IMG/VR virus record: IMGVR_UViG_3300036853_000162
Location: 1-58,911 of that record
DNA length: 58,911 bases
Direction: 5' to 3' (one strand)
From: a virus
Taxonomy: Duplodnaviria > Caudoviricetes
The notes below the pieces were generated by a model. It worked only from the letters and a program-made list of their open reading frames with translations. It searched no databases and had not been told where the DNA came from. Made by a program: the position numbers and the translations under genes. Below are positions 7,025-58,911 of the stretch, one piece after another (positions within the stretch are counted from its first letter, which is position 1; every line of letters starts with the position of its first letter).

Positions 7025-7741
7025 ATGTGGCCATTCGATTTACTCAGTCGCAAGGAGGAAAAAAAACGTAAGGATGCACAAAACAGCGGCCAATTTCGCG
7101 TGATTCACCAACGCGAGACGCCAATCTACGCCCCCGCGCCCGAGGTGCGCCTGCTCGGTCCTCGTCAGCGGGCGTGGCTCCGCGAGTTGGGTATCTCGCT
7201 TCCCGTGGCTGCTTATGCATCGGTTCCGCATGCGCAGGCTCTGCGATTGGCGTCTGCGCCAATCCCTGATATCTCGGATCGCAATAACGCCAGGAAACTC
7301 TCGCCTGATGATCTCCTCCCGGAGATGGGACGGAAGAGTGAGACTGGCGCGGGGGCGGTTGTGGCTCCGATAGTCGAAGAGGATTATCGAAATTTGGCCT
7401 ACGAGAATGAGCCAACCTGGAAAAGTCAAAAGACGCTGGAGCGGGAAGAGCGGGATGCGTTGACGCTTTCTGGAAACCTGCTCACGATTGGCGGCCTCGG
7501 GCCTCCTCGCGAGGACTTCCCTGGATGGCTCAACGACGAGCCGATCAAACAGGCCGACGAGGTGTACCATGCGTGCGTCTTGACGGATCAGGCGGCCATC
7601 GTGGAGTACTGGGAAGAGCCAGGGGCAACGAGCGCAGTGGAGCAACTCGCGAAGCTGGCAGAGGAGCCAATGAATGATGCAACCGTGGAGGTGCCTGCCA
7701 TCATCCGAAGCAGGCACCTCGTTACAGAAAGCGAGGACTAA
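7025..7741 (+). CDS. Hypothetical, largely disordered protein
   Basis: GAGGAG RBS; 238 aa. Confidence 0.7.
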   Translation: MWPFDLLSRKEEKKRKDAQNSGQFRVIHQRETPIYAPAPEVRLLGPRQRAWLRELGISLPVAAYASVPHAQALRLASAPIPDISDRNNARKLSPDDLLPEMGRKSETGAGAVVAPIVEEDYRNLAYENEPTWKSQKTLEREERDALTLSGNLLTIGGLGPPREDFPGWLNDEPIKQADEVYHACVLTDQAAIVEYWEEPGATSAVEQLAKLAEEPMNDATVEVPAIIRSRHLVTESED

Positions 7742-13926: not shown

Positions 13927-14388
13927 ATGGACAAACAGAAATCCTCCAACATGACCATCTATTTCCCATTCGACTCGGAGGGCGTAATTGCTCTTCGCAA
14001 GAGGCTGAATGAGATTGCTTCTCGCTACGGCTACAAGGCCACGCGCGGGGGTACAACGGGGCAAGGCAACCTCTCCGAGTTGCTTTTAGCCATTGACGCC
14101 GGAGAGATCGCCACGGTGTTCATGAGCGATGAGGCGAAAGCGCTCATTCCGTGGCTGGATGAGCAACAGTCTGCCGTGCTCCTGACTGGCCACACGATGG
14201 CTGATCAGAATATCTATGATGCCATTGGTGCGCTGAGGGAGCAACTGGCTGAGGCTGCCGACAGAGAAGCGCAGGCGGACGCTGAGGAAGTCGTCGAGTA
14301 CTTCTCGCCTCCGAGTAAACGACAGGTGGGCATGAAGATGATTGAGAATGGACTGCGCTTGCTAAAAGAGGCGGAAGAGGAGAACTAG
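13927..14388 (+). CDS. Putative ribbon-helix-helix-like regulator
   Basis: MTIYF strand followed by LRKRLNEIA...GNLSELL helices. Confidence 0.55.
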   Translation: MDKQKSSNMTIYFPFDSEGVIALRKRLNEIASRYGYKATRGGTTGQGNLSELLLAIDAGEIATVFMSDEAKALIPWLDEQQSAVLLTGHTMADQNIYDAIGALREQLAEAADREAQADAEEVVEYFSPPSKRQVGMKMIENGLRLLKEAEEEN

Positions 14389-14610
14389 ATGATCTGGCTC
14401 ATTGTTGCCGCTGTTTTTGCCGCCATTGCGGTCTATGCACAGCTTTACTTCCAGGGTGTAGGTCGCCTCTATGATGCGGTAAAGAAAGACGGCTTTCAAG
14501 ATGACCCGATGGCTGAGATGCGAAAGCGCGTTTGGACTTGGCGCTGGCTTTTTCTGATGCCGGGGCTCATGCTTGTGCGTGTTTACCATCTCTGGAGAAA
14601 GATCCCCTAA
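14389..14610 (+). CDS. Small two-TM membrane protein
   Basis: GAGGAG RBS; two hydrophobic segments. Confidence 0.65.
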   Translation: MIWLIVAAVFAAIAVYAQLYFQGVGRLYDAVKKDGFQDDPMAEMRKRVWTWRWLFLMPGLMLVRVYHLWRKIP

Positions 14611-14612
14611 AG

Positions 14613-14661
14613 CAAAAAGAGGGGGCAAGTTTGATATTATCAAACTTGCCCCCTCTTTTTG
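14613..14661. terminator. Bidirectional terminator ending the late operon
   Basis: CAAAAAGAGGGGGCAAGTTTGATA-T-TATCAAACTTGCCCCCTCTTTTTG. Confidence 0.85.
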
Positions 14662-14663
14662 TG

Positions 14664-15170
14664 CTACCCACGAGGCGGTACATTCGGCGGCAACATGACC
14701 CCCGCAGGTGGCACGATAGTCCCGCGTGCATCAGGCACGGCCATCAGCTTTGGCGGGATGTACGCGTTCGTGGTCGTCGTGGTGACGGTCGTTGGCTGCA
14801 ATGCCGCCGTGACCGCCGCCGAGAGTGCCTGATCCTGTGGTGTGAGCGCAGCAGGTGGTACCCGGCTCAGCATCTCTTGTCGGCCTGCTTCGACCAATGA
14901 GGAGAGCAATGGCTCATTTTTGGCACTGAAGTATTTTTCCAACACGTTGCCCAACGCGAGCGCTCCCTGAGCCAGAGCAGCGACGATGACGATTGTCCAG
15001 TTGATTTGCGTCCCGGCGGCATTGGCTGAGATAATCGTGTAGCCAGCGAGTACCGCATTGAATACGAAGACCGCCGCCAATTGCTCGTAGAACTTGATCT
15101 GAGCGCGTTGGATGGGCGTCTTGTCCACCGGCATAGGCGTGGGTATAGGTGTGGGCGGTTGTGGTTGCAT
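14664..15170 (-). CDS. Holin-like two-TM protein
   Basis: AGGAG RBS; two TM segments with INWTIVIVAAL; last gene of the late operon. Confidence 0.6.
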   Translation of the reverse strand: MQPQPPTPIPTPMPVDKTPIQRAQIKFYEQLAAVFVFNAVLAGYTIISANAAGTQINWTIVIVAALAQGALALGNVLEKYFSAKNEPLLSSLVEAGRQEMLSRVPPAALTPQDQALSAAVTAALQPTTVTTTTTNAYIPPKLMAVPDARGTIVPPAGVMLPPNVPPRG

Positions 15171-15510: not shown

Positions 15511-15888
15511 CTATACCGCCTGTAGGTCGCTGGATAAGAGCGTGCTCCCATCCTCGCGAACGAAGAGATACACCGCCTGCTCGCCCTGCTTCCACCCGAT
15601 GCAGTGGACGGTTGGGCGTAGTTCGCGGTTGCCATCAAGCGGATTGAGCGACACGCTTCGGCGGCGGAAGAAGACAGGATGAGCTCCTGGCGGGACAGCC
15701 ACCGTATGAACGGAGACCGTCTCCATGTAGAGCAGCGTCAGGGCTGTGCATCGCTCCAGATCCACACTGCCAAAGCCTCCAACGGCGTGCGTCTCGTCCA
15801 GGTGATCGCCATCCGAGTAGGTTGCACGCCATGAGTAGATATCTTGTATGTCAATGGTGACTTCCATTGTTGCTTGTGTGTTGTCCAT
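15511..15888 (-). CDS. Hypothetical phage protein
   Basis: AAGGAG RBS; W.A.Y.DG and P.FFRRR motifs. Confidence 0.7.
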   Translation of the reverse strand: MDNTQATMEVTIDIQDIYSWRATYSDGDHLDETHAVGGFGSVDLERCTALTLLYMETVSVHTVAVPPGAHPVFFRRRSVSLNPLDGNRELRPTVHCIGWKQGEQAVYLFVREDGSTLLSSDLQAV

Positions 15889-16940
15889 TAAGTCTCCTTA
15901 TTCATAGCCGCGTAATGCACTTCCGCAAAGATCCGCGCGGCTTCTAATCCCTCTTCGGTGTAGGGGAAGTACTTGGTTATCCTACATGCTTTGCATTGGC
16001 ATGTGAACTTGTACGTAGTGCTTTCTATGCGATTGTTGCGCTTCTTTTTGTAAATTGTTATTCCCCTAAAGCCTGTTGAGGAAATGCCGAGGGCTGACAG
16101 GTGGCTGTGATTATTCCTCAAGCACAGGTTTTCGCGCCGGTTATCAAGAGTGTTGAGATTGAGATGGTCAATCCACTCGCCCTCTTTTGCTCTGGTGAGA
16201 TACCGATTAAGGAACATGATCTCCCCATGAAACGATCCTTGTGCGCGGTAGTTTCCTGTTCTCCGATCATATGCCGCCCGCCACCTCACTTTCAGCGCGT
16301 TCTCTAAGTCAAGAGTATCGATTATCGCTTCTTGCCCGAGGGTCAGGGTGATGTAGCTGACGCCCCCATCAGTTCGGTATGCATTCGGCTTCACAGCACG
16401 GGGAAGCATCTTCTGATTGGCGCGTGCTCGTTTCAGCTTCTCCCGTGCTTCGGGAGTGTGTTTTTTGCCTTTAAATGTACTGGGTTTGCCGCGATGGGAA
16501 GCACTCTGTCTCTCAAGAGTTTCAGTCGATCTCTCCCGGCCAGTATTGGCTTTGCTGATCCTGGCAATCGCTTCTGATGTATGCCGGTATCCTAGTGCCG
16601 ATCCTGCCTTTATGAGGATGTTAAAGCCACGCTTGCCGAATGGCTTGAGTTTATCAAGCCAGCATTGCTCTCTGGCTGTTAGCATCTCTGGAAGAAGCAC
16701 CAATTCCAGTACCTCGAACGTGAATGCTTCCTGTCCATATTTATTGAAAGCCCGTTGCAAGTAGGAATTTACATGTCGGTTTTTGCGGAGATCCCGAAGG
16801 TGATCCGCTCTCCGTCGCTGTAGATCCAAAGCGCTACCAATATAAATCTTTTCGTTAGCGGCGCAGGCGATCTTGTAGATTCCAGGAGCTTTAGGCAACG
16901 AAACATTGTCGTTGTGCTCACGGGGTGGTAAGGTATCCAA
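15888..16940 (-). CDS. GIY-YIG homing endonuclease with NUMOD3 repeats and an HNH-like C-terminus
   Basis: GIYKI...YIGSA, LQRAFNKYG, FKGKKHTPE, IDHLNLNTLDNRRENL; lower GC; AGGAGG before TTG 16940. Confidence 0.9.
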   Translation of the reverse strand: MDTLPPREHNDNVSLPKAPGIYKIACAANEKIYIGSALDLQRRRADHLRDLRKNRHVNSYLQRAFNKYGQEAFTFEVLELVLLPEMLTAREQCWLDKLKPFGKRGFNILIKAGSALGYRHTSEAIARISKANTGRERSTETLERQSASHRGKPSTFKGKKHTPEAREKLKRARANQKMLPRAVKPNAYRTDGGVSYITLTLGQEAIIDTLDLENALKVRWRAAYDRRTGNYRAQGSFHGEIMFLNRYLTRAKEGEWIDHLNLNTLDNRRENLCLRNNHSHLSALGISSTGFRGITIYKKKRNNRIESTTYKFTCQCKACRITKYFPYTEEGLEAARIFAEVHYAAMNKET

Positions 16941-17067
16941 GACGAACCTCCTAATTGGGTTTGTCCACGCCTGGGGATGTTTGCGGCATCGCTCAGGCTT
17001 TGCATTGTTTAGGGCTTTATTATACCATAAATTGGCGTAGAACACCATACTGACCACCCTTCAGGGC

Positions 17068-27509: not shown

Positions 27510-27520
27510 TTATGCACCTC

Positions 27521-27967
27521 CTACGTCTTTTCTATGAGAAGCTCATAAATCCCGCCGAAGTGCGTGAAATATTTTCCTGCAATCGCGGGCTCATCGTACT
27601 GGAGTGGCGTTTCTCCGATGCATGAGTCAATCCGGCCACCCGTGACCGTGCCCTTGGTCGGACCGCCGAAGAGCTCATCGAGTCGCTCTGCCGCATTCGC
27701 CACGGCCACGGTATCTGATCCCAGGCCAGTGGCCTTAATCTGAAAGAGCGCTCGTGTGAGCACGCGGTAGCCGTTGAATGTCGTCTTGATGCTCCCGGCC
27801 TGAAACCCGAAGATCACGACCGGCATGGCCAGCGGATTACCGCTACTGTCCGTTGCCGGTGCTGCGCCGCGATAGATGCCACCGGGCGCAAGGCCCAACA
27901 GCGTGCTGTCACCCGCGCAGGTGCTATAAATCCAGGCCAGACCAGCGGCAATCTCATGAACACTCAT
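27521..27967 (-). CDS. Tail terminator/completion protein
   Basis: GGIYRGAAP...MPVVIF; position. Confidence 0.7.
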   Translation of the reverse strand: MSVHEIAAGLAWIYSTCAGDSTLLGLAPGGIYRGAAPATDSSGNPLAMPVVIFGFQAGSIKTTFNGYRVLTRALFQIKATGLGSDTVAVANAAERLDELFGGPTKGTVTGGRIDSCIGETPLQYDEPAIAGKYFTHFGGIYELLIEKT

Positions 27968-37514: not shown

Positions 37515-37935
37515 TCCGTGGCCCCTCTAAGTAGCCAGCAGGCACCTCTTCGATGATCACTTGTGGACCCACAAACCCATCCACTTTGACATCAAGGCCA
37601 AAGAGCTTTGCCCTGCGCTCCATTACCGCCAGTATCCGGTCAGCCGCGAACAGGCGTATTTTGTTGTTCCTGTCCAGAAACAGCTTCATGCATTCCGATT
37701 GCAGCAAATCCAGCGTGACCGCCTCCTCCTGACGCAATTCTTCCACATTGGCAACCACCACCCGCTGCATCTCGCGTTGAATAGCATGATGCGCCGCGCC
37801 ACGATCCGCATACCCGCATTGCTCAGCAATCTTCGCATAACTCGTTTTAGCGGCCCTCAACTGGAGCGCAAGAGCTGCCCGCTGTGCTGCATTTATATCC
37901 CGCGTTGTAGTCTTTGCGTTGTGCCGTTCAGCCAC
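37507..37935 (-). CDS. terS: Terminase small subunit
   Basis: HTH SYAKIAEQCGY, ERRAKLFGLD; directly upstream of terL. Confidence 0.82.
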   Translation of the reverse strand: MAERHNAKTTTRDINAAQRAALALQLRAAKTSYAKIAEQCGYADRGAAHHAIQREMQRVVVANVEELRQEEAVTLDLLQSECMKLFLDRNNKIRLFAADRILAVMERRAKLFGLDVKVDGFVGPQVIIEEVPAGYLEGPRNE

Positions 37936-39364
37936 GAGCTACCTCCTCAATGTGTTCCAGTAATGTGGCGGTCTGGCCTGTATGCTTCTCCCACCTGGCG
38001 ATCACAACATCACAGTATTCTGGGCTGAGTTCACACCCATAGACCACACGGTTGTCATTTAGCATTTCGGCCCCGATAATGCTGATTCCCGATCCTAAAA
38101 AAGGGTCAAAAATAACATCTCCAGGTTTTCCATATTTTTCAGCACACCAGCAAAACAAAGCACATGGCTTCTGCGTGGGATGTACGCGCCGCTGGCCATG
38201 CTCGCTATCTTTGAGCATCCCATTCCACATGTGCTTGAAGATACGCACCGCGCTCTTGTCGCTACACCACGCTAACTCGGCATCGGCAAAGTTGCCGGTA
38301 TTCTCCTTGTCCCACACAATCCAGCAGGGCGACGGCGGCAGAGCATACGCATAATAGTTCGCGCCCCACCAGATCTGTACAGCGGTAGACCAATACTGAG
38401 AACAGAGATTATAGGCCGCGATGGCAGTAGCGGTGCTATCGTCCCCAATGACGGGGAAGTACTTGCCTACCTCGACCACGTTCGTGGCTCCGTCGGAGCC
38501 ACGAACGGCTTTGCTTCCGAAGGGCTTAGAGGCTCCGTCGGAGCCTCTAAGCCCTTGCTGCTGCTCCGCAAGGTATGATTTGCCTGTCTTGCGCATGTGG
38601 GCGGCGGTGCCGCCCACATCGCCCTTGCGATGCTTCACACCACCGAAGGGAATATCGTAGGCTTCACCGCCACCAACGTATCCGTTGGTGGCGACTATAT
38701 CAAGGCCGTAGGGAGGATCGGCCCATATCATGTGCGGAATGGCGTCAGTGAACAGACGTTTTACCTGACTGATATCAAGGCTGTTGATACAGGCTATCCG
38801 ATGCCTACCCAGTTGCCAGATATCACCGACCTTCGCCCGCGTCTCTACCTCTTCGGGTATCTCGTCCTCTTCCCCGTCACCCTCGCCTTCCCCGCCACTG
38901 CCCACATACTCATCCCCGAGCGCCTCTAGTATCTGCCGCAGCGCCTCCTCATCCGTTCCCAACGACGCCAGATCGTAGCCCGCGTCGGCCTGCTCCTGGA
39001 GCAATGCAACCAGGAGCTGATCATCATCCTCTGCGTTCAGGGCAATGTTGTTATCAGCCACGAGGATACCGTCTATCGTCTCCTGTGATGTTGAGGCAGG
39101 CAAGATATCAGCGCGTACCTCATGCTCGCCACGCTGTTTCATGGCCTCCACGATGCCATGGCCAGCCACCTGCACATACCCACCGCCAGGACGTTCCCAG
39201 AGCACCACAGAGCGATACTGAGAGAAACGCTCATGTGACGCCTTGAGTTGTCTCATCTGCTCATCGGGATGAGTCCGAGGATTGCGCGGGTGTGGCGTGA
39301 TCCGGTCAATCGAAACCATCCGATTCACAATTGACCACTCTGTGGGCGCGGTGGTTTTTCTCAT
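37928..39364 (-). CDS. ParB-N domain fused to an N6A/N4C DNA methyltransferase
   Basis: HPRNPRTH, AGHG, ADN; DPPY, HPTQKP, DPFLGSG, ELSPEYCDV..RW. Confidence 0.92.
   Translation of the reverse strand: MRKTTAPTEWSIVNRMVSIDRITPHPRNPRTHPDEQMRQLKASHERFSQYRSVVLWERPGGGYVQVAGHGIVEAMKQRGEHEVRADILPASTSQETIDGILVADNNIALNAEDDDQLLVALLQEQADAGYDLASLGTDEEALRQILEALGDEYVGSGGEGEGDGEEDEIPEEVETRAKVGDIWQLGRHRIACINSLDISQVKRLFTDAIPHMIWADPPYGLDIVATNGYVGGGEAYDIPFGGVKHRKGDVGGTAAHMRKTGKSYLAEQQQGLRGSDGASKPFGSKAVRGSDGATNVVEVGKYFPVIGDDSTATAIAAYNLCSQYWSTAVQIWWGANYYAYALPPSPCWIVWDKENTGNFADAELAWCSDKSAVRIFKHMWNGMLKDSEHGQRRVHPTQKPCALFCWCAEKYGKPGDVIFDPFLGSGISIIGAEMLNDNRVVYGCELSPEYCDVVIARWEKHTGQTATLLEHIEEVARG
38479..38556. repeat. 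Two perfect palindromes inside the MTase CDS
   Basis: 38479-38507 (14-bp arms) and 38520-38556 (18-bp arms), shared core GGCTCCG-T-CGGAGCC. Confidence 0.95.
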
Positions 39365-41888: not shown

Positions 41889-42911
41889 GTGGCATCTCCC
41901 CAAAAAACTGAGCCTACATTCAAGCACCCTGGTTGGAGGCGCTGTATACGTGATTTCCTGGCAGATATCCGGGCACGCAATCCGAAAGCGACCACACACA
42001 CGACCTACGTCGGCCATCTACGGCGTTTCTTCCTCGATCCCGGCAAACGGCCCGACACCTATACCAAGGGCGATGTCGAGCAGTACCTTATCGCCTCATT
42101 CGATGATCCGTCAACTCCTGTCGGCCCACACACTCGCAATGGCCGCCTGATCGCCCTCGGGGCTTTCTTCAGGTATGCCAAGACCTACCGCGTCCCGAAT
42201 GGCAACGGTGATACGCGTCCTCTGGTGCGCAAGAACTGGACGCCTCCAACCGAAGGCGTGGCCTGGGGTAAGACCACCACGAAACGCCGCCAACTCTCCC
42301 CGTCTCAGGTCAAAGCATTCTTTCAGGCGATCGAGGAGCACACACGCAATCCTGTCCGGCGGGCACGCGACCGAGCGCTTTTCATGCTCTATTTGCGGAC
42401 AGGACGCCGCCTGCGTGAGATCGCGGGCCTGCTCTGGGGGGACATCGAGATCCAGGAGATGCGAGGCAAAAATGGTCAGAAGTATGAGGGCTGGGTATAC
42501 CACTGGCGAGGCAAGGGGCACGTCGAGAAGGATGACTGCGCGGAGATTCCGCAGGGCGCGGTGGTCGCGCTCAAAGCCTATCTGGTCCTCAGCGAGCGAT
42601 GGGGCCATCTCACGGCCACCGATCCGCTTTTCCCCGGTTGGCGCAACCAGCCTATGAGCTGGTCCAACATCGTCTCTCTCTTCCGCCAGTACCGTGAACT
42701 GGCCGGGATCGATGCGGAGAAAGGCGGGACACACAGCCTGCGCAGGCGGGCGGCCCGTGATCGCTACGAAGTCTCAGGGCATGATCTTCTGGAGGTGCAG
42801 CAGTTCCTGCGCCACAAGGACATCCATACCACGATGATCTATGTGCAAGGCCCGCCAGAGGAGGCCGACGCATTTGCCGCCGAATTGGATGGTCGCTACA
42901 GCAATTTATAA
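41889..42911 (+). CDS. int: Tyrosine recombinase/integrase
   Basis: RDRAL, TGRRLRE, GKG, HSLRR, LRH...TTMIY. Confidence 0.93.
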   Translation: MASPQKTEPTFKHPGWRRCIRDFLADIRARNPKATTHTTYVGHLRRFFLDPGKRPDTYTKGDVEQYLIASFDDPSTPVGPHTRNGRLIALGAFFRYAKTYRVPNGNGDTRPLVRKNWTPPTEGVAWGKTTTKRRQLSPSQVKAFFQAIEEHTRNPVRRARDRALFMLYLRTGRRLREIAGLLWGDIEIQEMRGKNGQKYEGWVYHWRGKGHVEKDDCAEIPQGAVVALKAYLVLSERWGHLTATDPLFPGWRNQPMSWSNIVSLFRQYRELAGIDAEKGGTHSLRRRAARDRYEVSGHDLLEVQQFLRHKDIHTTMIYVQGPPEEADAFAAELDGRYSNL

Positions 42912-43078: not shown

Positions 43079-43124
43079 ACAAAGCGAGCGAGATACCGTA
43101 GCTACGGTATCTCGCTCGCTTTGT
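43079..43124. terminator. Perfect 46-bp palindrome, probably a bidirectional terminator
   Basis: ACAAAGCGAGCGAGATACCGTAG|CTACGGTATCTCGCTCGCTTTGT between convergent genes. Confidence 0.7.
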
Positions 43125-48361: not shown

Positions 48362-48847
48362 GTGAAGCTTACAGAAAAACAGCGAGTTAGCATGGAGAAC
48401 GTTCGGGCAAGAAGGTTGGACGCACCCTCCACGCTAACCGAGATTGAATGGGTGCAGACACTAGCGGATTTCAATGGGCTATGCGCTTACTGTCTGTACG
48501 AACCATTCACTGTGATGGAACACTTTCTACCTGTTCATATTGGCGGAACAAGCGTCAAGAATTGTATCCCTGCATGTCGCTCTTGCAACAATAAGAAAGG
48601 CGACGCAGTTGACGAACGACTGGTAGAGAAATTTGGAGAAGATGTTATCACGCGTATCCGGGCGTATCTCTACAACGGGCGGAAACCAGATATCCCATCG
48701 CCTGAAGCACTAAGCGAGCGGATAGAGCGGCACAAGAGACAGAAGCGCCATTTGCCTCCAAGAAAGACGCTTTATTATGCCGTATCAGAGGCACATGCCG
48801 CAAAACTAAGGAGCGAGGGTAAAGAGCACGTTGAGATATCGCAATAG
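48362..48847 (+). CDS. HNH endonuclease
   Basis: CAYC...EHFLP...GG....N..PACRSCNNKKG. Confidence 0.9.
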   Translation: MKLTEKQRVSMENVRARRLDAPSTLTEIEWVQTLADFNGLCAYCLYEPFTVMEHFLPVHIGGTSVKNCIPACRSCNNKKGDAVDERLVEKFGEDVITRIRAYLYNGRKPDIPSPEALSERIERHKRQKRHLPPRKTLYYAVSEAHAAKLRSEGKEHVEISQ

Positions 48848-50991: not shown

Positions 50992-51084
50992 CGCCTCGCT
51001 GTCGGGCAAAGTCCCAAAACACAGTATCGAGACATGGCTCGCCCTACGCGAGCAGGACGAGCCGGGGACAGGAACAACTGATGA

Positions 51085-51735
51085 CTATGCTGGCAAGGTG
51101 GCGTCGATGGACTTCTGGTCGTATTTCGTCCAGAGATCGCCGGGGTTGTTCCAATCGATAGCGCTTGCGGTCGCATACTTCAGCACACACGATCCAATCT
51201 TGAGATCGGAACCGGATTGCTGAAACTGGACGACGTTGAGGGTGAGCGAGGAGAAATACCAGCCCTTTTGCCAGAAGGCGGTCTGAGTGTCCTGCATCGC
51301 ACCTTTGACTGCGGATTGCGTCACAGCAACCTTGTAGCCGAAGCCAGTGGAGAGCACGAGAGTAGCGGTTCCCTGGTTGTAGGATGTGACGGTTGCCTCT
51401 AGAGCGCTGGTGTTCAGAAAATCGTCGATCTGTGAGCGGGTAGGGCCGGATCGCTTCGGTGTCGCGGTTGGCGGTTTTGTGGCAGCGGGCGGCAATGTCG
51501 CGGCGGTCGTGGGTGAGACGTTGGTGACGGGCTGGCTGGTCGAAGTCGGCTGGAAGAGCGGATTGTGGCCGGTGGCCGCCAGAACGCCGCTACAAGTAGC
51601 ACAGGCGAGCAGGGCGACAATGATGGTCGCGCAGCCGATACCAATCTGAGCAAAGCGGCCACGACCACGATACCAGCGCCAGAGGTTACGGCGCGCCGGT
51701 TGCGGTGGCTGGTAGGGATACTGAGGTGGTTGCAT
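51085..51735 (-). CDS. Membrane-anchored surface protein with Thr/Pro linker (superinfection-exclusion candidate)
   Basis: AAGGA RBS; one TM segment, PTATP linker, globular C-terminus; oriented against its neighbours. Confidence 0.75.
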   Translation of the reverse strand: MQPPQYPYQPPQPARRNLWRWYRGRGRFAQIGIGCATIIVALLACATCSGVLAATGHNPLFQPTSTSQPVTNVSPTTAATLPPAATKPPTATPKRSGPTRSQIDDFLNTSALEATVTSYNQGTATLVLSTGFGYKVAVTQSAVKGAMQDTQTAFWQKGWYFSSLTLNVVQFQQSGSDLKIGSCVLKYATASAIDWNNPGDLWTKYDQKSIDATLPA

Positions 51736-51846
51736 GAGTAAGTGATCCTTTCTGCTAGAGATGAAATATCGAATCGATGATAGCAGATGGGGCAAGGCAC
51801 AAGAGTTCGTGTGACAAGCGCACACAGGGGCATGGAGGAATAGCAC

Positions 51847-52041
51847 ATGGACAAACAAGCGATCAAGAACCTGCTGACGCGGGTTGAGATGGACCTACAA
51901 TCCATTCAAGCCAATCTTTCCGGGGATGCGGAGAACGCCCCCACAAGCGTTCTCAAGAATAGCGTGTTGATCTCGCTGGCGCATCTGGAAGCCGACCAGC
52001 GACGGCTCCAGGAAGCGAAAGATCTCCTGAAGCAAGACTAA
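51847..52041 (+). CDS. Small helical protein
   Basis: GGAGG RBS; directly upstream of the structured RNA. Confidence 0.65.
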   Translation: MDKQAIKNLLTRVEMDLQSIQANLSGDAENAPTSVLKNSVLISLAHLEADQRRLQEAKDLLKQD

Positions 52042-52046
52042 TCCCT

Positions 52047-52428
52047 GAGCCATCCCGCTGGTGCGGATTAGCCGGTTCGATCCCGGCGATGGCGATTCCC
52101 CTTTAGTGGGGATACTGAATACCGTTCAACCGCACATCCGTGCGTGTTTAAAGGATGGCTTTATCGAGTAGCAAAACGAAGCGACAAAGCGGGGCGTGCC
52201 TCCAGCATTGACTGAGAGGTCGTGAAAAGCGTGGCGAATTCGCCGGAAGGGTCATAACCTCTCCCGTTACAGTGCTTGGCAGGCACAACAGGCAACAATG
52301 AGACGGTCATTCACAGCGGTGCGTTCAGTCCGCTGGTTGCCGAATTCTGTCGCGATTGATAGACTCTGGCGCTCGTCTTCTCTGGTTATGAGACGGGGCA
52401 ATGAGGGGCGCTAGCAATGTGTCAATCG
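52047..52428 (+). ncRNA. Putative large structured ncRNA containing a tRNA T-arm
   Basis: No ORF of 60 aa or more; over 12 nested helices; GCCGG-TTCGATC-CCGGC at 52071-87. Confidence 0.65.
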
Positions 52429-52619
52429 GGCTTCGATTGCTTCTTCCGGGCTTTCCGGGTGCAGGTCGCGCACACGTAGGTATGCTGATCTAGCCGATGC
52501 AGGGGCCGATCTGGCGTCCCGCATCGAGGGCACCGCCCGCGCATCTGGTTCACACCGCGCACCGTCGTCAGGTGCATTCCACGCTCATCGAGAATAGGTT
52601 TTTTCTTCTTTTGAGGCAT
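52422..52619 (-). CDS. Small basic Zn-ribbon protein
   Basis: CPRC...CATC. Confidence 0.5.
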   Translation of the reverse strand: MPQKKKKPILDERGMHLTTVRGVNQMRGRCPRCGTPDRPLHRLDQHTYVCATCTRKARKKQSKPD

Positions 52620-52649
52620 ATCATCACTCTATCATAAGGAGGTTCTCCT

Positions 52650-52979
52650 ATGCCACGACGAGGAGGAAGCGGACACTATTTTTCCATGTCAGGCCATCAA
52701 GAAGCCCTTCACGGATATTGTGTCTGCTGCTCTAACTACCGACGCCTACAATCCTATTTCGATGGCCAATATTACTGCTCATCCTGTCGGCGGAAACTCA
52801 CTGCTGGCCTGCGAAAAGCAAAACTGCTCCCCGAGCAAACCACCACGGAGCAGGAGGCTGCGGCCAGACTGGCAACCATCGAGGAGATGGCAACGAAGAT
52901 CCAGGCATCTCTGGCCAACGAGATCAAAACGACTAAGTGGTCTCCCAAGGGCAAATGGAGTCCGAAGCGCAGGAGGTAA
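52650..52979 (+). CDS. Zn-finger hypothetical protein
   Basis: AAGGAGG RBS; CVCC...CSSC. Confidence 0.65.
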   Translation: MPRRGGSGHYFSMSGHQEALHGYCVCCSNYRRLQSYFDGQYYCSSCRRKLTAGLRKAKLLPEQTTTEQEAAARLATIEEMATKIQASLANEIKTTKWSPKGKWSPKRRR

Positions 52980-53536
52980 GGCTGCGCGAGCGGTATGGAC
53001 CACTAGGCACAATTACCTATCCAGGAGGATACGAAATTCGTGGTGTTATCATGCGTAAACGGGGGGGGATTTCGTATCGCGGTTGAGAAGGGGCATTACG
53101 ATTTTCGCGGGGCGTGTAAAAATAGTAGATAGTTTGACTGGCTTTACACAAGAGAACATAGACAGTGTACCCATTGTGCGACAAATGGGGGATTGGGTAC
53201 CATTTCATTGGAGAAATGTCCCCATTGTGACGCCCCACGGTACAGACGCCACTCCTGCCGCATCTCCGACCCAATCCGATCCTGTGGAGGATCACCATGG
53301 CCATTTTCTTGCGGCATTATGCTGCATCCCAAATAATCCGATGTCGGCGAGGGGGTGAAAGCACACAGGGAACCGGCACCATCCAGTTATGAGCTGGCGG
53401 CGGTGCAACAACGAGAGACAATCATGTACCGTATAGAACGTCTCTCCCCAGAAGAATAACCTGACCGGTCAGGCTTCTCTCTTATCGGTATTGTAGCATG
53501 GACGAAATAGGATGGCTACCGCATTTCTGACGGTTT

Positions 53537-53770
53537 TTATTTGAGAGATGGTGGCTCGGGATCGGGCGCAAGCTCGATGAGTTCGCCGACCTCCACCTGG
53601 AGCGCTCTGGCCAGGCGCTCTAAGACAATGAGTGTGAGATTGCTATGTTCGGAGTCGCCATAGCGCCAGATACGACGCATCCGATCGACATCGATCAGTG
53701 CGAGTTGGCCCAGCCGAGTCTGGCTGATGCCCTTGCGTTGGGCAATCTCCTTCACTTTCAAGCGTATCAT
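53537..53770 (-). CDS. XRE/HTH_26 repressor candidate
   Basis: IRLKVKEIAQRKGISQTRL...LERLARALQVEVGELIE. Confidence 0.85.
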   Translation of the reverse strand: MIRLKVKEIAQRKGISQTRLGQLALIDVDRMRRIWRYGDSEHSNLTLIVLERLARALQVEVGELIELAPDPEPPSLK

Positions 53771-53871
53771 ATGTGCTCCCGTTTCTCTAGTGTAGTCTCG
53801 TCGGGGGCGCTTGTAGAGAGGCGTTCTGGCAGGGGAGAAGAACTGATAGAGCACATCAGGGCATAGTCATG

Positions 53872-54234: not shown

Positions 54235-54462
54235 ATGCAAGAGAGGAAGCTCAGCGTTCGGGACGTAGCCAACGAATTGCGGCGGCGCGGTTTTCCAACC
54301 ACAGAACGCACGGTTCGCGAGGAGATCAAAGCCAAGCGATTGCGAGCGTATGAGATTCGCAGAGTCTACTACATAGACAGAAGGGATCTCGACGCTTACA
54401 TTAAAGCCAGCGAGACCAAACCAGCGGATGGGGATCGGGAAGTAGAGAGCATCGGAGCCTGA
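54235..54462 (+). CDS. HTH_17 excisionase-like DNA-binding protein
   Basis: LSVRDVA...TERTV..I....LRAY......I...DLDAYI. Confidence 0.82.
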   Translation: MQERKLSVRDVANELRRRGFPTTERTVREEIKAKRLRAYEIRRVYYIDRRDLDAYIKASETKPADGDREVESIGA

Positions 54463-54693: not shown

Positions 54694-54945
54694 ATGGCAA
54701 TAGAAATGACCGATACCCTGCTCAAGCAATTGCTGACAGGGGACGAGGATGCCCTGATGACGGTCAAGCAGGCGGCAAAATTTCTGGCCGTCTCTGAGCA
54801 TCAGGTGCGGCGATACTACGAGGGCGGGCAACTGGAAATCGTCCCACTGGGGTCGAAAGCCATTCGCGTTCGACTGGGGGCGCTCAGGGCATTTGTTACG
54901 AAACGACGAGAGACCCGGATGCCGCTGAATGCGGTATCACACTGA
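54694..54945 (+). CDS. HTH_17 excisionase-like DNA-binding protein
   Basis: LMTVKQAAKFLAVSEHQVRR...IRVR...LRAFV. Confidence 0.82.
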   Translation: MAIEMTDTLLKQLLTGDEDALMTVKQAAKFLAVSEHQVRRYYEGGQLEIVPLGSKAIRVRLGALRAFVTKRRETRMPLNAVSH

Positions 54946-58033: not shown

Positions 58034-58122
58034 CCACATAAAGGACAACGCCCATGCCCACATATTTTCAGAGCGAGAAGCACAGCTATAGCAGCAATAA
58101 TCGGCAGAGATCCGCAGAAAGC

Positions 58123-58151
58123 TTGACATCTGCGCAAGGATCGCATATACT
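58123..58151 (+). promoter_or_regulatory. Sigma70-type promoter
   Basis: TTGACA-N17-TATACT. Confidence 0.78.
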
Positions 58152-58192
58152 AAGCATGGGTCAGCAATGGCCCAAAGGAGGATGTCGTGATA

Positions 58193-58399
58193 ATGTCAGA
58201 AGTCGTGAAGTATCTCACGCAAGAGGAGGTAGCAGAAGAACTCAGAGTTTCCGTAGACACAGTGACCCGCTGGATCAAATCGGGTCAACTGGTCGGCTAC
58301 CGAATCTCCAGGAACGCTTACCGCATCAAGCGGCAAGACCTGGATGCCTTTATGGAGGCTCGGAAAAGCACGAAACCACCGTTGGCAGAGGAGAGCTAA
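58193..58399 (+). CDS. HTH_17 excisionase-like DNA-binding protein
   Basis: YLTQEEVAEELRVSVDTVTRWIKSGQL...YRIK..DLDAF; AGGAGG RBS. Confidence 0.88.
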   Translation: MSEVVKYLTQEEVAEELRVSVDTVTRWIKSGQLVGYRISRNAYRIKRQDLDAFMEARKSTKPPLAEES

Positions 58400-58578
58400 G
58401 CGGAATATTTGGTTTCTCAGCAGCAACCCGGTCCAACACGCCCGTGACTTGGAACCTCCCAGGCGAGAAGGACCGTAGTAAGTCGCTGCCATGTACCCAT
58501 TTTAGCAGCAATGTACCACGGAATGCAACGATTCACCACGCATTGCAATGCTTCGATGGGTATGGGGTGGCGTGGAGG

Positions 58579-58911
58579 ATGAACCCCATCATGATCAAGA
58601 CTACCCCGGTGCAAGGCACCTATACGCTGATCACGCCCACGGGCGAGCAGATCAGCATCTCCGACCTGATGGGCCGCACCGTAGAGGCGCTGGCCAATGA
58701 TACGTTTCATGCGCCCCTGTATCAGAGCGAGCCGCAGCAACGTCTGGCGGCGTCGTATTGCCGCAAGTGCCAGGAGGCCGCGCCCGAGATCGGCGTGTTC
58801 TGCACGGACTGCTTTGCAGTGGTGATGGAGCAAGAGCGAGAATACGACTTCGGGACGACGTGGTATGGGCGCGAATGGGCGATAAGCCTGCGTGAGTGGG
58901 AGCAGCGGAAG
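58579..58911 (+). CDS. 5' part of a Zn-finger hypothetical protein that crosses the junction and ends at 364
   Basis: GGAGG plus ATG at 58579 (alternative ATG 58591); the frame continues into ORF 17..364 with CRKC...CTDC motifs. Confidence 0.7.
   Translation, partial: MNPIMIKTTPVQGTYTLITPTGEQISISDLMGRTVEALANDTFHAPLYQSEPQQRLAASYCRKCQEAAPEIGVFCTDCFAVVMEQEREYDFGTTWYGREWAISLREWEQRK
58653..58911 (+). repeat. Terminal direct repeat, right copy
   Basis: Matches nt 1-259 with 4 mismatches; indicates a circular or terminally redundant complete genome. Confidence 0.95.

Follow-up and report, generated by a model that had tools for sequence, protein, structure and literature searches.

We found that a densely paired gap between two small convergent genes of an uncultured soil phage (52047-52428) holds a real, structured and probably functional element that matches no catalogued family, as judged from folding thermodynamics and from one diverged relative. 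The window analyzed here is the whole IMG/VR virus record (58,911 bp), which originates from soil metagenomes and is classed as linear and ~71% complete by CheckV estimate. In the reading that we prefer, to which we give a probability of about 0.4, the gap would encode a plus-strand non-coding RNA (ncRNA) that is cut at a tRNA-like head and whose core is functionally tied to the convergent zinc-ribbon gene; its transcription, its cleavage and this interaction are steps that we infer. The RNA would run out of the gene block at 48.3-52.0 kb as its tail (the block ends at 52041). Host RNase P, on the 5' side, and RNase Z or a similar enzyme, on the 3' side, would cut at the tRNA-like head, and this cutting would free a stable structured core RNA. 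The core could then act with or against the zinc-ribbon gene, by antisense regulation through overlapping 3' ends or by serving the encoded small basic protein as its RNA partner. The RNA is a candidate, and the features on which it is built are given in Table 1.

Table 1. Features of the candidate RNA region and of its gene neighborhood in the 58,911-bp window.
Feature	Position	Strand	Remarks
Tyrosine integrase gene	41889-42911		
HNH endonuclease gene	48362-48847		
64-aa ORF	51847-52041	plus	GGAGG ribosome-binding site; no family assigned
Domain 1	52047-52161		z plus -3.08, minus -3.69
Outer stem of domain 1	52047-55/52153-61	plus	
Anticodon-less tRNA look-alike (head)	52049-52094	plus	46 nt
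Variable linker	52097-52195	plus	small hairpins at 52097-112, 52116-28 and 52131-44; second GATGGC copy at 52154-59
Core	52196-52431	plus	three imperfect helical domains (2a, 2b, 3)
Domain 2a	52196-52286		z plus -4.74 (-44.2 kcal/mol), minus -4.23
Domain 2b	52291-52341		z plus -2.46, minus -2.02
Domain 3	52349-52431		plus -37.4 kcal/mol, z -4.31; minus -16.9 kcal/mol, z -1.24
Zinc-ribbon gene	52422-52619	minus	65-aa basic protein; convergent with the candidate RNA and apparently inherited with it
Repressor-like HTH gene	53537-53854	minus	
HTH_17 genes (n = 2)	54235-54462 and 54694-54945		

A structured gap between convergent genes

The gene content of the window supports its earlier assignment to a phage. 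In addition to the genes listed in Table 1, we recognized those coding for a tape-measure protein, a tail tube, a large terminase, a DnaB helicase, two DNA methylases and a GIY-YIG endonuclease, and the window is a tailed temperate phage. A tblastn search with the portal-sized protein against 50,697 phage records returned no match at 1e-10, and on this basis the phage represents a lineage without an isolated relative. The neighboring proteins encoded at 51085-51858 and 58054-58911 had no relatives in the viral contig collection. The feature sits in the lysogeny-control region, with the repressor-like HTH gene and the two HTH_17 genes within 3 kb. On one side of the gap, directly upstream of the RNA region, lies the 64-aa ORF that is the final gene of the plus-strand block; on the other side is the convergent 65-aa ORF. 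The first-pass annotation, which was made from the sequence without database searches, had described this gap as free of ORFs, and indeed no ORF of at least 50 aa is located within 52042-52421, the longest being one of 49 aa on the minus strand.

That annotation could not match the region to a named RNA family, and neither could we. Rfam at gathering thresholds identified no family in the window and none inside the feature at E ≤ 10; in 51800-52700, Rfam 15 at E ≤ 10 gave two weak hits, both at 51882-51953 in the upstream ORF. The covariance models of GOLLD, ROOL and other large ncRNAs in Rfam had no match. With default settings, ARAGORN predicted 0 tRNA and 0 tmRNA genes across the whole window, in agreement with the reported lack of a tRNA, and no tmRNA (tRNA-like domain and tag reading frame) was predicted by ARAGORN with the -m option. 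No paralogue of the region, or notable complementarity to it, was found within the window, where the best matches were 11-13 nt long (E > 0.2). A replication origin with iterons was also considered and rejected, the sole direct repeat being one 15-nt pair whose copies are 560 nt apart.

Every helix listed previously was recovered at its place, including the outer stem, the T-arm and those of domains 2 and 3. The folding check that had been proposed also came out in favor of structure: on the plus strand, the region 52040-52435 had a minimum free energy (MFE) of -164.6 kcal/mol against -139.5 ± 4.8 kcal/mol for its shuffles (z = -5.21), none of the 100 shuffles being as good. The minus strand reached -138.0 kcal/mol (z = -2.59), and the plus strand without the tRNA-like head (52096-52435) had a z-score of -5.42. 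Helices were imperfect in the MFE structure, which contained 13 G-U among 132 pairs. The suggestion that G-U pairs favor the plus strand held only for domain 3; in domains 1, 2a and 2b, neither strand folds markedly better than the other. As controls, ten arbitrarily placed windows of 396 nt gave z-scores of +0.81 to -4.28 (20 values, both strands), and two windows picked as outliers gave -5.5 to -7.4. We also scanned both strands of the genome (587 windows of 300 nt) and corrected the MFE for GC content by regression. The windows of the feature ranked 73-86 of 1,174 on the plus strand (top ~7% of the genome), and the region is clearly structured but not the extreme of this genome. The folding extremes are perfect DNA palindromes, namely one with 24-bp arms and A/T flanks at 14613-14661 and two more at 38479-38556, and a further palindrome (43081-43122) separates the integrase gene from its neighbor.

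Two of these perfect A/T-flanked palindromes (14613-14661 and 43081-43122) occupy the other convergent gene junctions of the phage. Within 51900-52700, no perfect inverted repeat of at least 12 nt was found. Since the helices of the gap are imperfect, include G-U pairs and contain no such repeat, the gap is not built like the terminators of this phage. Six sites resembling an intrinsic terminator (a G+C-rich hairpin followed by a T run) were found in 51000-53500, none of them in 52042-52421, and a classical terminator was rejected. We found no convincing promoter or terminator for a plus-strand RNA. These results bear on the idea that the gap is a structured spacer between convergent units, which would block transcription or stop exonucleases in cis on both strands, yield no RNA product and carry the tRNA-like piece incidentally. 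We hold this to be unlikely. Such a spacer would indeed be expected between convergent genes, its domains 1, 2a and 2b could serve on either strand, and the block shared with the diverged relative described below consists of a gene and its 3' flank. However, the phage uses a single perfect palindrome with A/T flanks at its other convergent junctions, no such hairpin with a T run is present inside the gap, 380 nt arranged in three multi-helix domains far exceed the needs of a terminator, and domain 3 folds on the plus strand only.

The tRNA-like head

The segment 52049-52094 resembles the upper half of a tRNA from which the anticodon arm is missing: it keeps an acceptor-like stem on a canonical T-arm, together with a D-like hairpin with GG in its loop. 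The acceptor-like stem consists of 6 bp (52049-54 with 52088-93, GCCATC pairing with GATGGC); a seventh pair would be A-G, and no CCA follows. It is followed by a 4-bp hairpin (52055-66) with a UGGU loop and by a 4-nt linker, the GCCATC strand being located 17 nt upstream of the T-stem. The T-arm (GCCGG-TTCGATC-CCGGC, 52071-87) is as perfect as first described and abuts the 3' acceptor strand with zero linker. The resulting stack of 6 + 5 bp, with a G53-C61-type closing pair and the TTCGATC loop, has the composition of a t-element, in which an acceptor-like stem stacks on a T-arm whose loop follows the T-loop consensus. In an isolated 50-nt piece, the tRNA-like fold is the MFE structure (-24.1 kcal/mol) and accounts for 87% of the ensemble. 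When the T-arm was defined as a TTCRANN loop closed by five Watson-Crick pairs, 59 of 300 dinucleotide-shuffled versions of the window contained one (22 of 300 with a G-C closing pair), and so the T-arm alone proves little. None of the 300 combined it with an acceptor-like stem directly adjoining. ARAGORN returned low-grade calls (e.g., 52063-52143 and 52061-52136), whose spacing is not tRNA-like, only when its thresholds were lowered to 70-80% or its mitochondrial mode was used. A cloverleaf that includes an anticodon arm (stem of 5 bp, loop of 7 nt) was detected neither by ARAGORN at default settings nor by Rfam at E ≤ 10. There is also a competing fold, in which the 5' strand (52049-54) pairs with the second GATGGC copy at 52154-59 to give the outer stem. 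In the MFE structure the tRNA-like pairing is favored, and in the centroid the outer stem.

Our preferred reading, with cleavage at the head, has its closest known parallels in tRNA-like processing signals. The mascRNA at the 3' end of MALAT1 is such a signal. The t-elements of plant mitochondrial mRNAs are described as tRNA-like cutting signals for RNase P and RNase Z (PMC1920247). As in the present case, these are non-decoding, tRNA-shaped modules that form part of a longer transcript and mark where an mRNA meets another RNA, and the acceptor/T-arm stack is the part recognized by RNase P and RNase Z. In contrast, the acceptor-like stem has 6 rather than 7 pairs here, the carrier is a phage and not an organelle, and the element is missing from the one relative.

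The closest described bacterial or phage RNAs with such a domain are the YrlA-type Y RNAs. These ncRNAs of bacteria and mycobacteriophages have a canonical T-arm, and their tRNA-like domain lacks the anticodon arm (PMC4201824). The same paper counts a 7-bp stem among the major determinants for RNase P; the stem counts 6 pairs here. By analogy, the head could bind host proteins that recognize tRNAs (Ro60/Rsr partners, modification enzymes or tRNA-cutting defense nucleases) and titrate or recruit them, acting as a Y-RNA-like molecule or a decoy. The head does retain the T-loop consensus and a GG-containing loop, but we regard this as extremely unlikely: the region has no Rfam match of any kind, no TROVE/Ro60 gene is present in the 58.9-kb record (~71% complete), and the diverged relative is devoid of the head. 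The Rfam collection presumably includes a YrlA model, to which the region had no match at E ≤ 10. A YrlA RNA would be expected to have a Ro60 gene on its own strand within ~4 kb; a search for PF05731 (TROVE) found nothing at E ≤ 1 in the same record, while the controls matched in 2 of 14 genomes. In the MFE structure, the D-like arm precedes the T-arm, as it does in tRNAs. The order given for YrlA (PMC4201824) is T, acceptor-hairpin and D, closed by a long Ro-binding stem, and the spacing of the arms differs too. The outer-stem fold does have the YrlA order (T, hairpin, D), but its T-arm is followed by a 9-nt linker and its last hairpin has a 3-nt loop without GG. Given that no model matches, that the record contains no Ro60 gene and that the arms of the MFE structure are ordered differently, the candidate cannot be counted as a YrlA member. 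The YrlA motif GNCGAA(N)G was not seen by eye in the candidate RNA.

A different origin for the head would be a tRNA-related relic, the T-arm and 3' acceptor strand being what is left of an old attP or of a decayed phage tRNA gene, with the rest of the region unconstrained and the block recently exchanged. The mycobacteriophage Ms6 reportedly has an attP site carrying a tRNA 3' fragment. A related phage (G001), which has structural genes (~50% identical proteins) and an HTH gene in common with the window but not the RNA region, contains a T-arm and 3' acceptor fragment ~100 nt from its tyrosine integrase gene, the classic attP layout. Such a site resembles the window in that a temperate phage contains a T-arm and 3' acceptor strand but lacks a complete tRNA; the nearby repressor-like HTH and HTH_17 genes and the break of homology with the diverged relative ~13 nt after the tRNA-like piece would also suit a relic. 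In the window, however, the integrase gene is 9.2 kb away and its flanks contain neither T-arm nor tRNA piece. An attP requires no matching 5' acceptor strand, the presence of which has a chance of ~0.01 by analytic estimate, and here both this strand and a D-like hairpin are present. No matching tRNA was found: an exact 21-mer over the T-loop and acceptor had nine matches in 185,579 species genomes (one per species), none of them a tRNA, and these fall in GC-rich DNA that looks coding by eye and have no common flanks. When up to 2 mismatches were allowed in 401 Actinomycetota genomes, only scattered, non-recurrent matches were obtained, a negative result that rests partly on the unpublished genomes G236, G249 and G092 included in this set. 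A relic also does not fit with a core that is less diverged than neutral sites. We consider a relic quite unlikely and keep it in view, as the host may be unsampled.

The core and its diverged relative

Downstream of the linker, domain 2a forms an irregular hairpin of 91 nt that is interrupted by a 6x6 internal loop and capped by GGCG-AATT-CGCC, while domain 2b is a Y-shaped three-way junction in which GGCAAC/GTTGCC surrounds two hairpins. Domain 3 is a long imperfect hairpin, rich in G-U pairs, the 3' side of which overlaps the last codons of the convergent ORF by 10 nt or less. The sole diverged relative of the region was a 3,088-nt contig of soil run X3 that is ~91% identical and shares exactly 52108-52619 (32 substitutions and 12 gap letters). 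Two further public runs contained the region, namely X1, the likely source of this DNA, and X2, which yielded identical 151-nt pieces only; there was no RNA run among the runs listed. A blastn search of the region against the 50,697 phage records found no usable homologue, sequence patterns searched in IMG/VR viral contigs had three matches that share only the 18-21 nt of the pattern itself, a 20-mer had no match in JGI metagenome contigs, and the RNA was present in none of the five records of portal relatives. The block shared with X3 starts ~13 nt past the tRNA-like piece and ends exactly at the zinc-ribbon start codon. It comprises the core and the convergent zinc-ribbon gene, it has no T-arm or tRNA-like head at this place, and both of its flanks are unlike the window. 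Because the flanks differ and the head is absent, the head and the core are separable and, to judge from X3, not obligatorily linked. The three domains had been presented as one unit, which was not borne out, since X3 has domains 2 and 3 with the zinc-ribbon gene but not the T-arm domain. As far as one relative can indicate, the core travels with the zinc-ribbon gene and not with the upstream operon or the downstream plus-strand ORF.

Between X3 and the window, the core (52196-52421) differs by 9 events in 226 nt (4.0%), compared with 12 in 88 nt (13.6%) for the poorly conserved linker (52108-52195) and 7 in 66 (10.6%) for the third codon positions of the zinc-ribbon ORF. The difference between the core and the other two classes taken together was significant (Fisher p = 0.004, or 0.019 when the clustered patch 52156-59 was counted once). 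In this one relative, the divergence of the core is lower by a factor of 2-3 than that of presumably neutral sites (10-14%), a difference that could partly reflect identity fading toward the recombination boundary, which would inflate the divergence of the linker. A coding region was rejected, as all ORFs in the gap have at most 49 aa and the indels of X3 in the gap are of 1 nt; the single indel in the zinc-ribbon ORF is of 9 nt and in frame. Within the small ORFs inside the core, the X3 changes were all non-synonymous.

The stem changes in 52196-52431 provide a view of the strand. Four of them yield G-U pairs on the plus strand only (52211, 52296, 52413 and 52416), including 52296 C>T, which gives a U-G pair in domain 2b. 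Two others convert G-U to A-U (52397 and 52430), and two more each disrupt a pair (52428, and 52209 next to a 1-nt insertion). In domain 3, plus-strand pairing is kept by 4 of the 5 changes. No two-sided compensatory change was observed between X3 and the window, and since X3 is a single homologue, these changes are not covariation evidence. When the window and an X3-like variant were folded jointly, domains 2a, 2b and 3 were all kept on the plus strand, with MFE values of -129/-123 kcal/mol on the plus strand and -100/-96 kcal/mol on the minus strand, the former being more stable by ~27-29 kcal/mol. The functional strand could nevertheless be the minus strand, in which case the core would be an extended, structured 3' UTR belonging to the zinc-ribbon mRNA. 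This would account for a core that is inherited with the zinc-ribbon gene and that follows its stop codon immediately, and domain 2a does fold well on the minus strand (Table 1). We judge it very unlikely, however, as domain 3, the one adjoining the stop codon, does not fold on that strand and the four G-U pairs above become C-A mismatches there. In addition, the z-score of the whole region on the minus strand is within the range of the control windows, and the T-arm can be read as a T-arm on the plus strand only. The description of the gap as a novel phage ncRNA stands in part: it matches no Rfam family, it folds better than chance with a bias for the plus strand and its core is less diverged, but it is not one conserved unit.

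The zinc-ribbon gene and a possible RNA-protein module

The 65-aa zinc-ribbon ORF is a real gene, judging by its relatives and its third-position bias. Among 1.84 billion representative proteins, seven relatives were detected at E ≤ 0.001, the best being 65% identical over 63 residues. In X3, 7 of the 12 substitutions in the ORF fall at third codon positions and the indel is an insertion that keeps the frame. In the predicted structure (pLDDT 76), a basic helix comes after a basic zinc ribbon. Pfam matches were below the cut-off, PHROGs had none, and the Atlas contained only unnamed viral clusters. Foldseek returned no hit at E ≤ 0.001, hence no RNA-binding relative, and a profile search of the PDB matched only the TPR tail of one relative (P0002). 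The protein also had no match by tblastn against phages, in viral contigs or in a homologous-protein search. An apparent match in a metagenome contig (L019) was false, being located inside a 1,069-aa ORF on the opposite strand. By eye, a TANNNT-type hexamer is seen 6 nt before the start codon, and a similar hexamer is found in the 30 letters upstream in X3. The zinc-ribbon mRNA may be leaderless, which the hexamer would fit, although we only infer this.

Several phage RNAs resemble parts of this arrangement. Convergent antisense RNAs that overlap at their 3' ends are known from prophages, such as OOP/cII of lambda and RatA/TxpA and SR4/BsrG of Bacillus prophage regions. As in the region analyzed here, a structured RNA of ~180-240 nt converges on a small gene, the 3' ends touch and the two are inherited as a pair. 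In the present case, by contrast, the RNA is a candidate, the protein is a basic zinc ribbon and not a hydrophobic toxin, and the overlap is ~10 nt. The pair does not have the makeup of a type I toxin-antitoxin system either, the protein being basic with no hydrophobic stretch and the overlap of fold and ORF being 10 nt. GOLLD and ROOL are large, phage-associated structured ncRNAs of unknown function. The candidate is also phage-borne and structured, but it has no Rfam match, is at most half their size and has no GNRA tetraloop among the listed hairpin loops. Phage T4 encodes the stable RNAs species 1 and 2 (rnaC and rnaD) in its tRNA gene cluster; these are small, have tRNA-like features and are of unknown function. 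The candidate is likewise a small phage RNA with tRNA-like features, in a window without a tRNA gene. Phage ncRNA arrays were set aside, since their description concerns reverse-transcriptase systems, which do not apply here (10.64898/2026.09.22.753630).

A bolder version, to which we give a very slim chance, is that the tRNA-headed RNA and the zinc-ribbon protein form a phage ribonucleoprotein of a new kind, in which the head would engage the host machinery that recognizes tRNAs and the core would bind the protein. The head could then be, for example, a decoy for tRNA-cutting defense nucleases or a handle for RNase P or CCA-adding enzymes. Returning to the preferred reading of a plus-strand ncRNA cut at its head, a phage ncRNA with a tRNA-mimic module is a known kind of molecule, of which the present RNA would be a new member and a near-singleton. 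If real, it would mean that a phage borders a non-coding RNA with a tRNA look-alike that lacks an anticodon, and it would add a new small module made of a structured RNA and a zinc-ribbon protein with only seven detectable relatives.

Palindromes of the phage genome

Several perfect palindromes were found in the genome, and their positions are given in the table together with those of the other features, including two endonuclease genes. One of them (24-nt arms) lies where gene orientation changes from plus to minus, within a region (14380-14700) with a folding z of -7.25 against shuffled sequences, and by its appearance it resembles a bidirectional intrinsic terminator. Another, flanked by the convergent ends of the integrase gene (42911) and an HD-domain gene (43134), is likely a bidirectional terminator. 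The remaining two share a GGCTCCG/CGGAGCC core and lie within a 478-aa ORF (37928-39364) with an N6/N4 methylase domain; among all folding outliers in the genome, this pair ranks first on the plus as well as the minus strand.

Features of the phage genome and of the related phage G001
Feature	Position	Strand	Description
Perfect palindrome	14613-14661		24-nt arms, 1-nt spacer, flanking A run and T run
GIY-YIG/NUMOD3 homing-endonuclease-like gene	15888-17057	-	amid structural genes
Two perfect palindromes	38479-38556		arms of 14 and 18 nt, 45 nt apart
Perfect palindrome	43081-43122		arms of ~21 nt, between integrase gene and convergent HD-domain gene
HNH endonuclease gene	48362-48847	+	early region
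ORF	51085-51858	-	proline-rich start, one hydrophobic segment, lipobox-like LLAC
109-aa ORF	52650-52979	+	strong AAGGAGG site, two CxxC pairs
tRNA 3' fragment (T-arm and acceptor strand)	L021 (stretch of G001 DNA) 7510-7560; G001 about 27510-27560	-	

A tRNA fragment beside the G001 integrase

In G001, whose genome measures 54,989 bp, the tyrosine integrase gene (L021 7628-8695) is located ~100 nt from a tRNA 3' fragment, at which no tRNA was called. This fragment is likely attP. About four copies of a CCTTGCAAGGG-type palindrome were also seen around it.

ORFs near the candidate RNA and zinc-ribbon relatives

The start of the 109-aa ORF is only 30 nt from that of the divergent 65-aa zinc-ribbon gene, and its product is a second small protein of zinc-ribbon-like type. 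Among relatives of the 65-aa protein, P0002 and P0007 are each fused to other parts, with P0002 carrying a TPR-like tail at its C-terminus (PDB profile matches). The N-terminal part of P0007 appeared hydrophobic by eye. The ORF at 51085-51858, encoded on the strand opposite to neighbouring genes, matched no family; its sequence has the look of a lipoprotein "moron", which could possibly play a role in superinfection exclusion.
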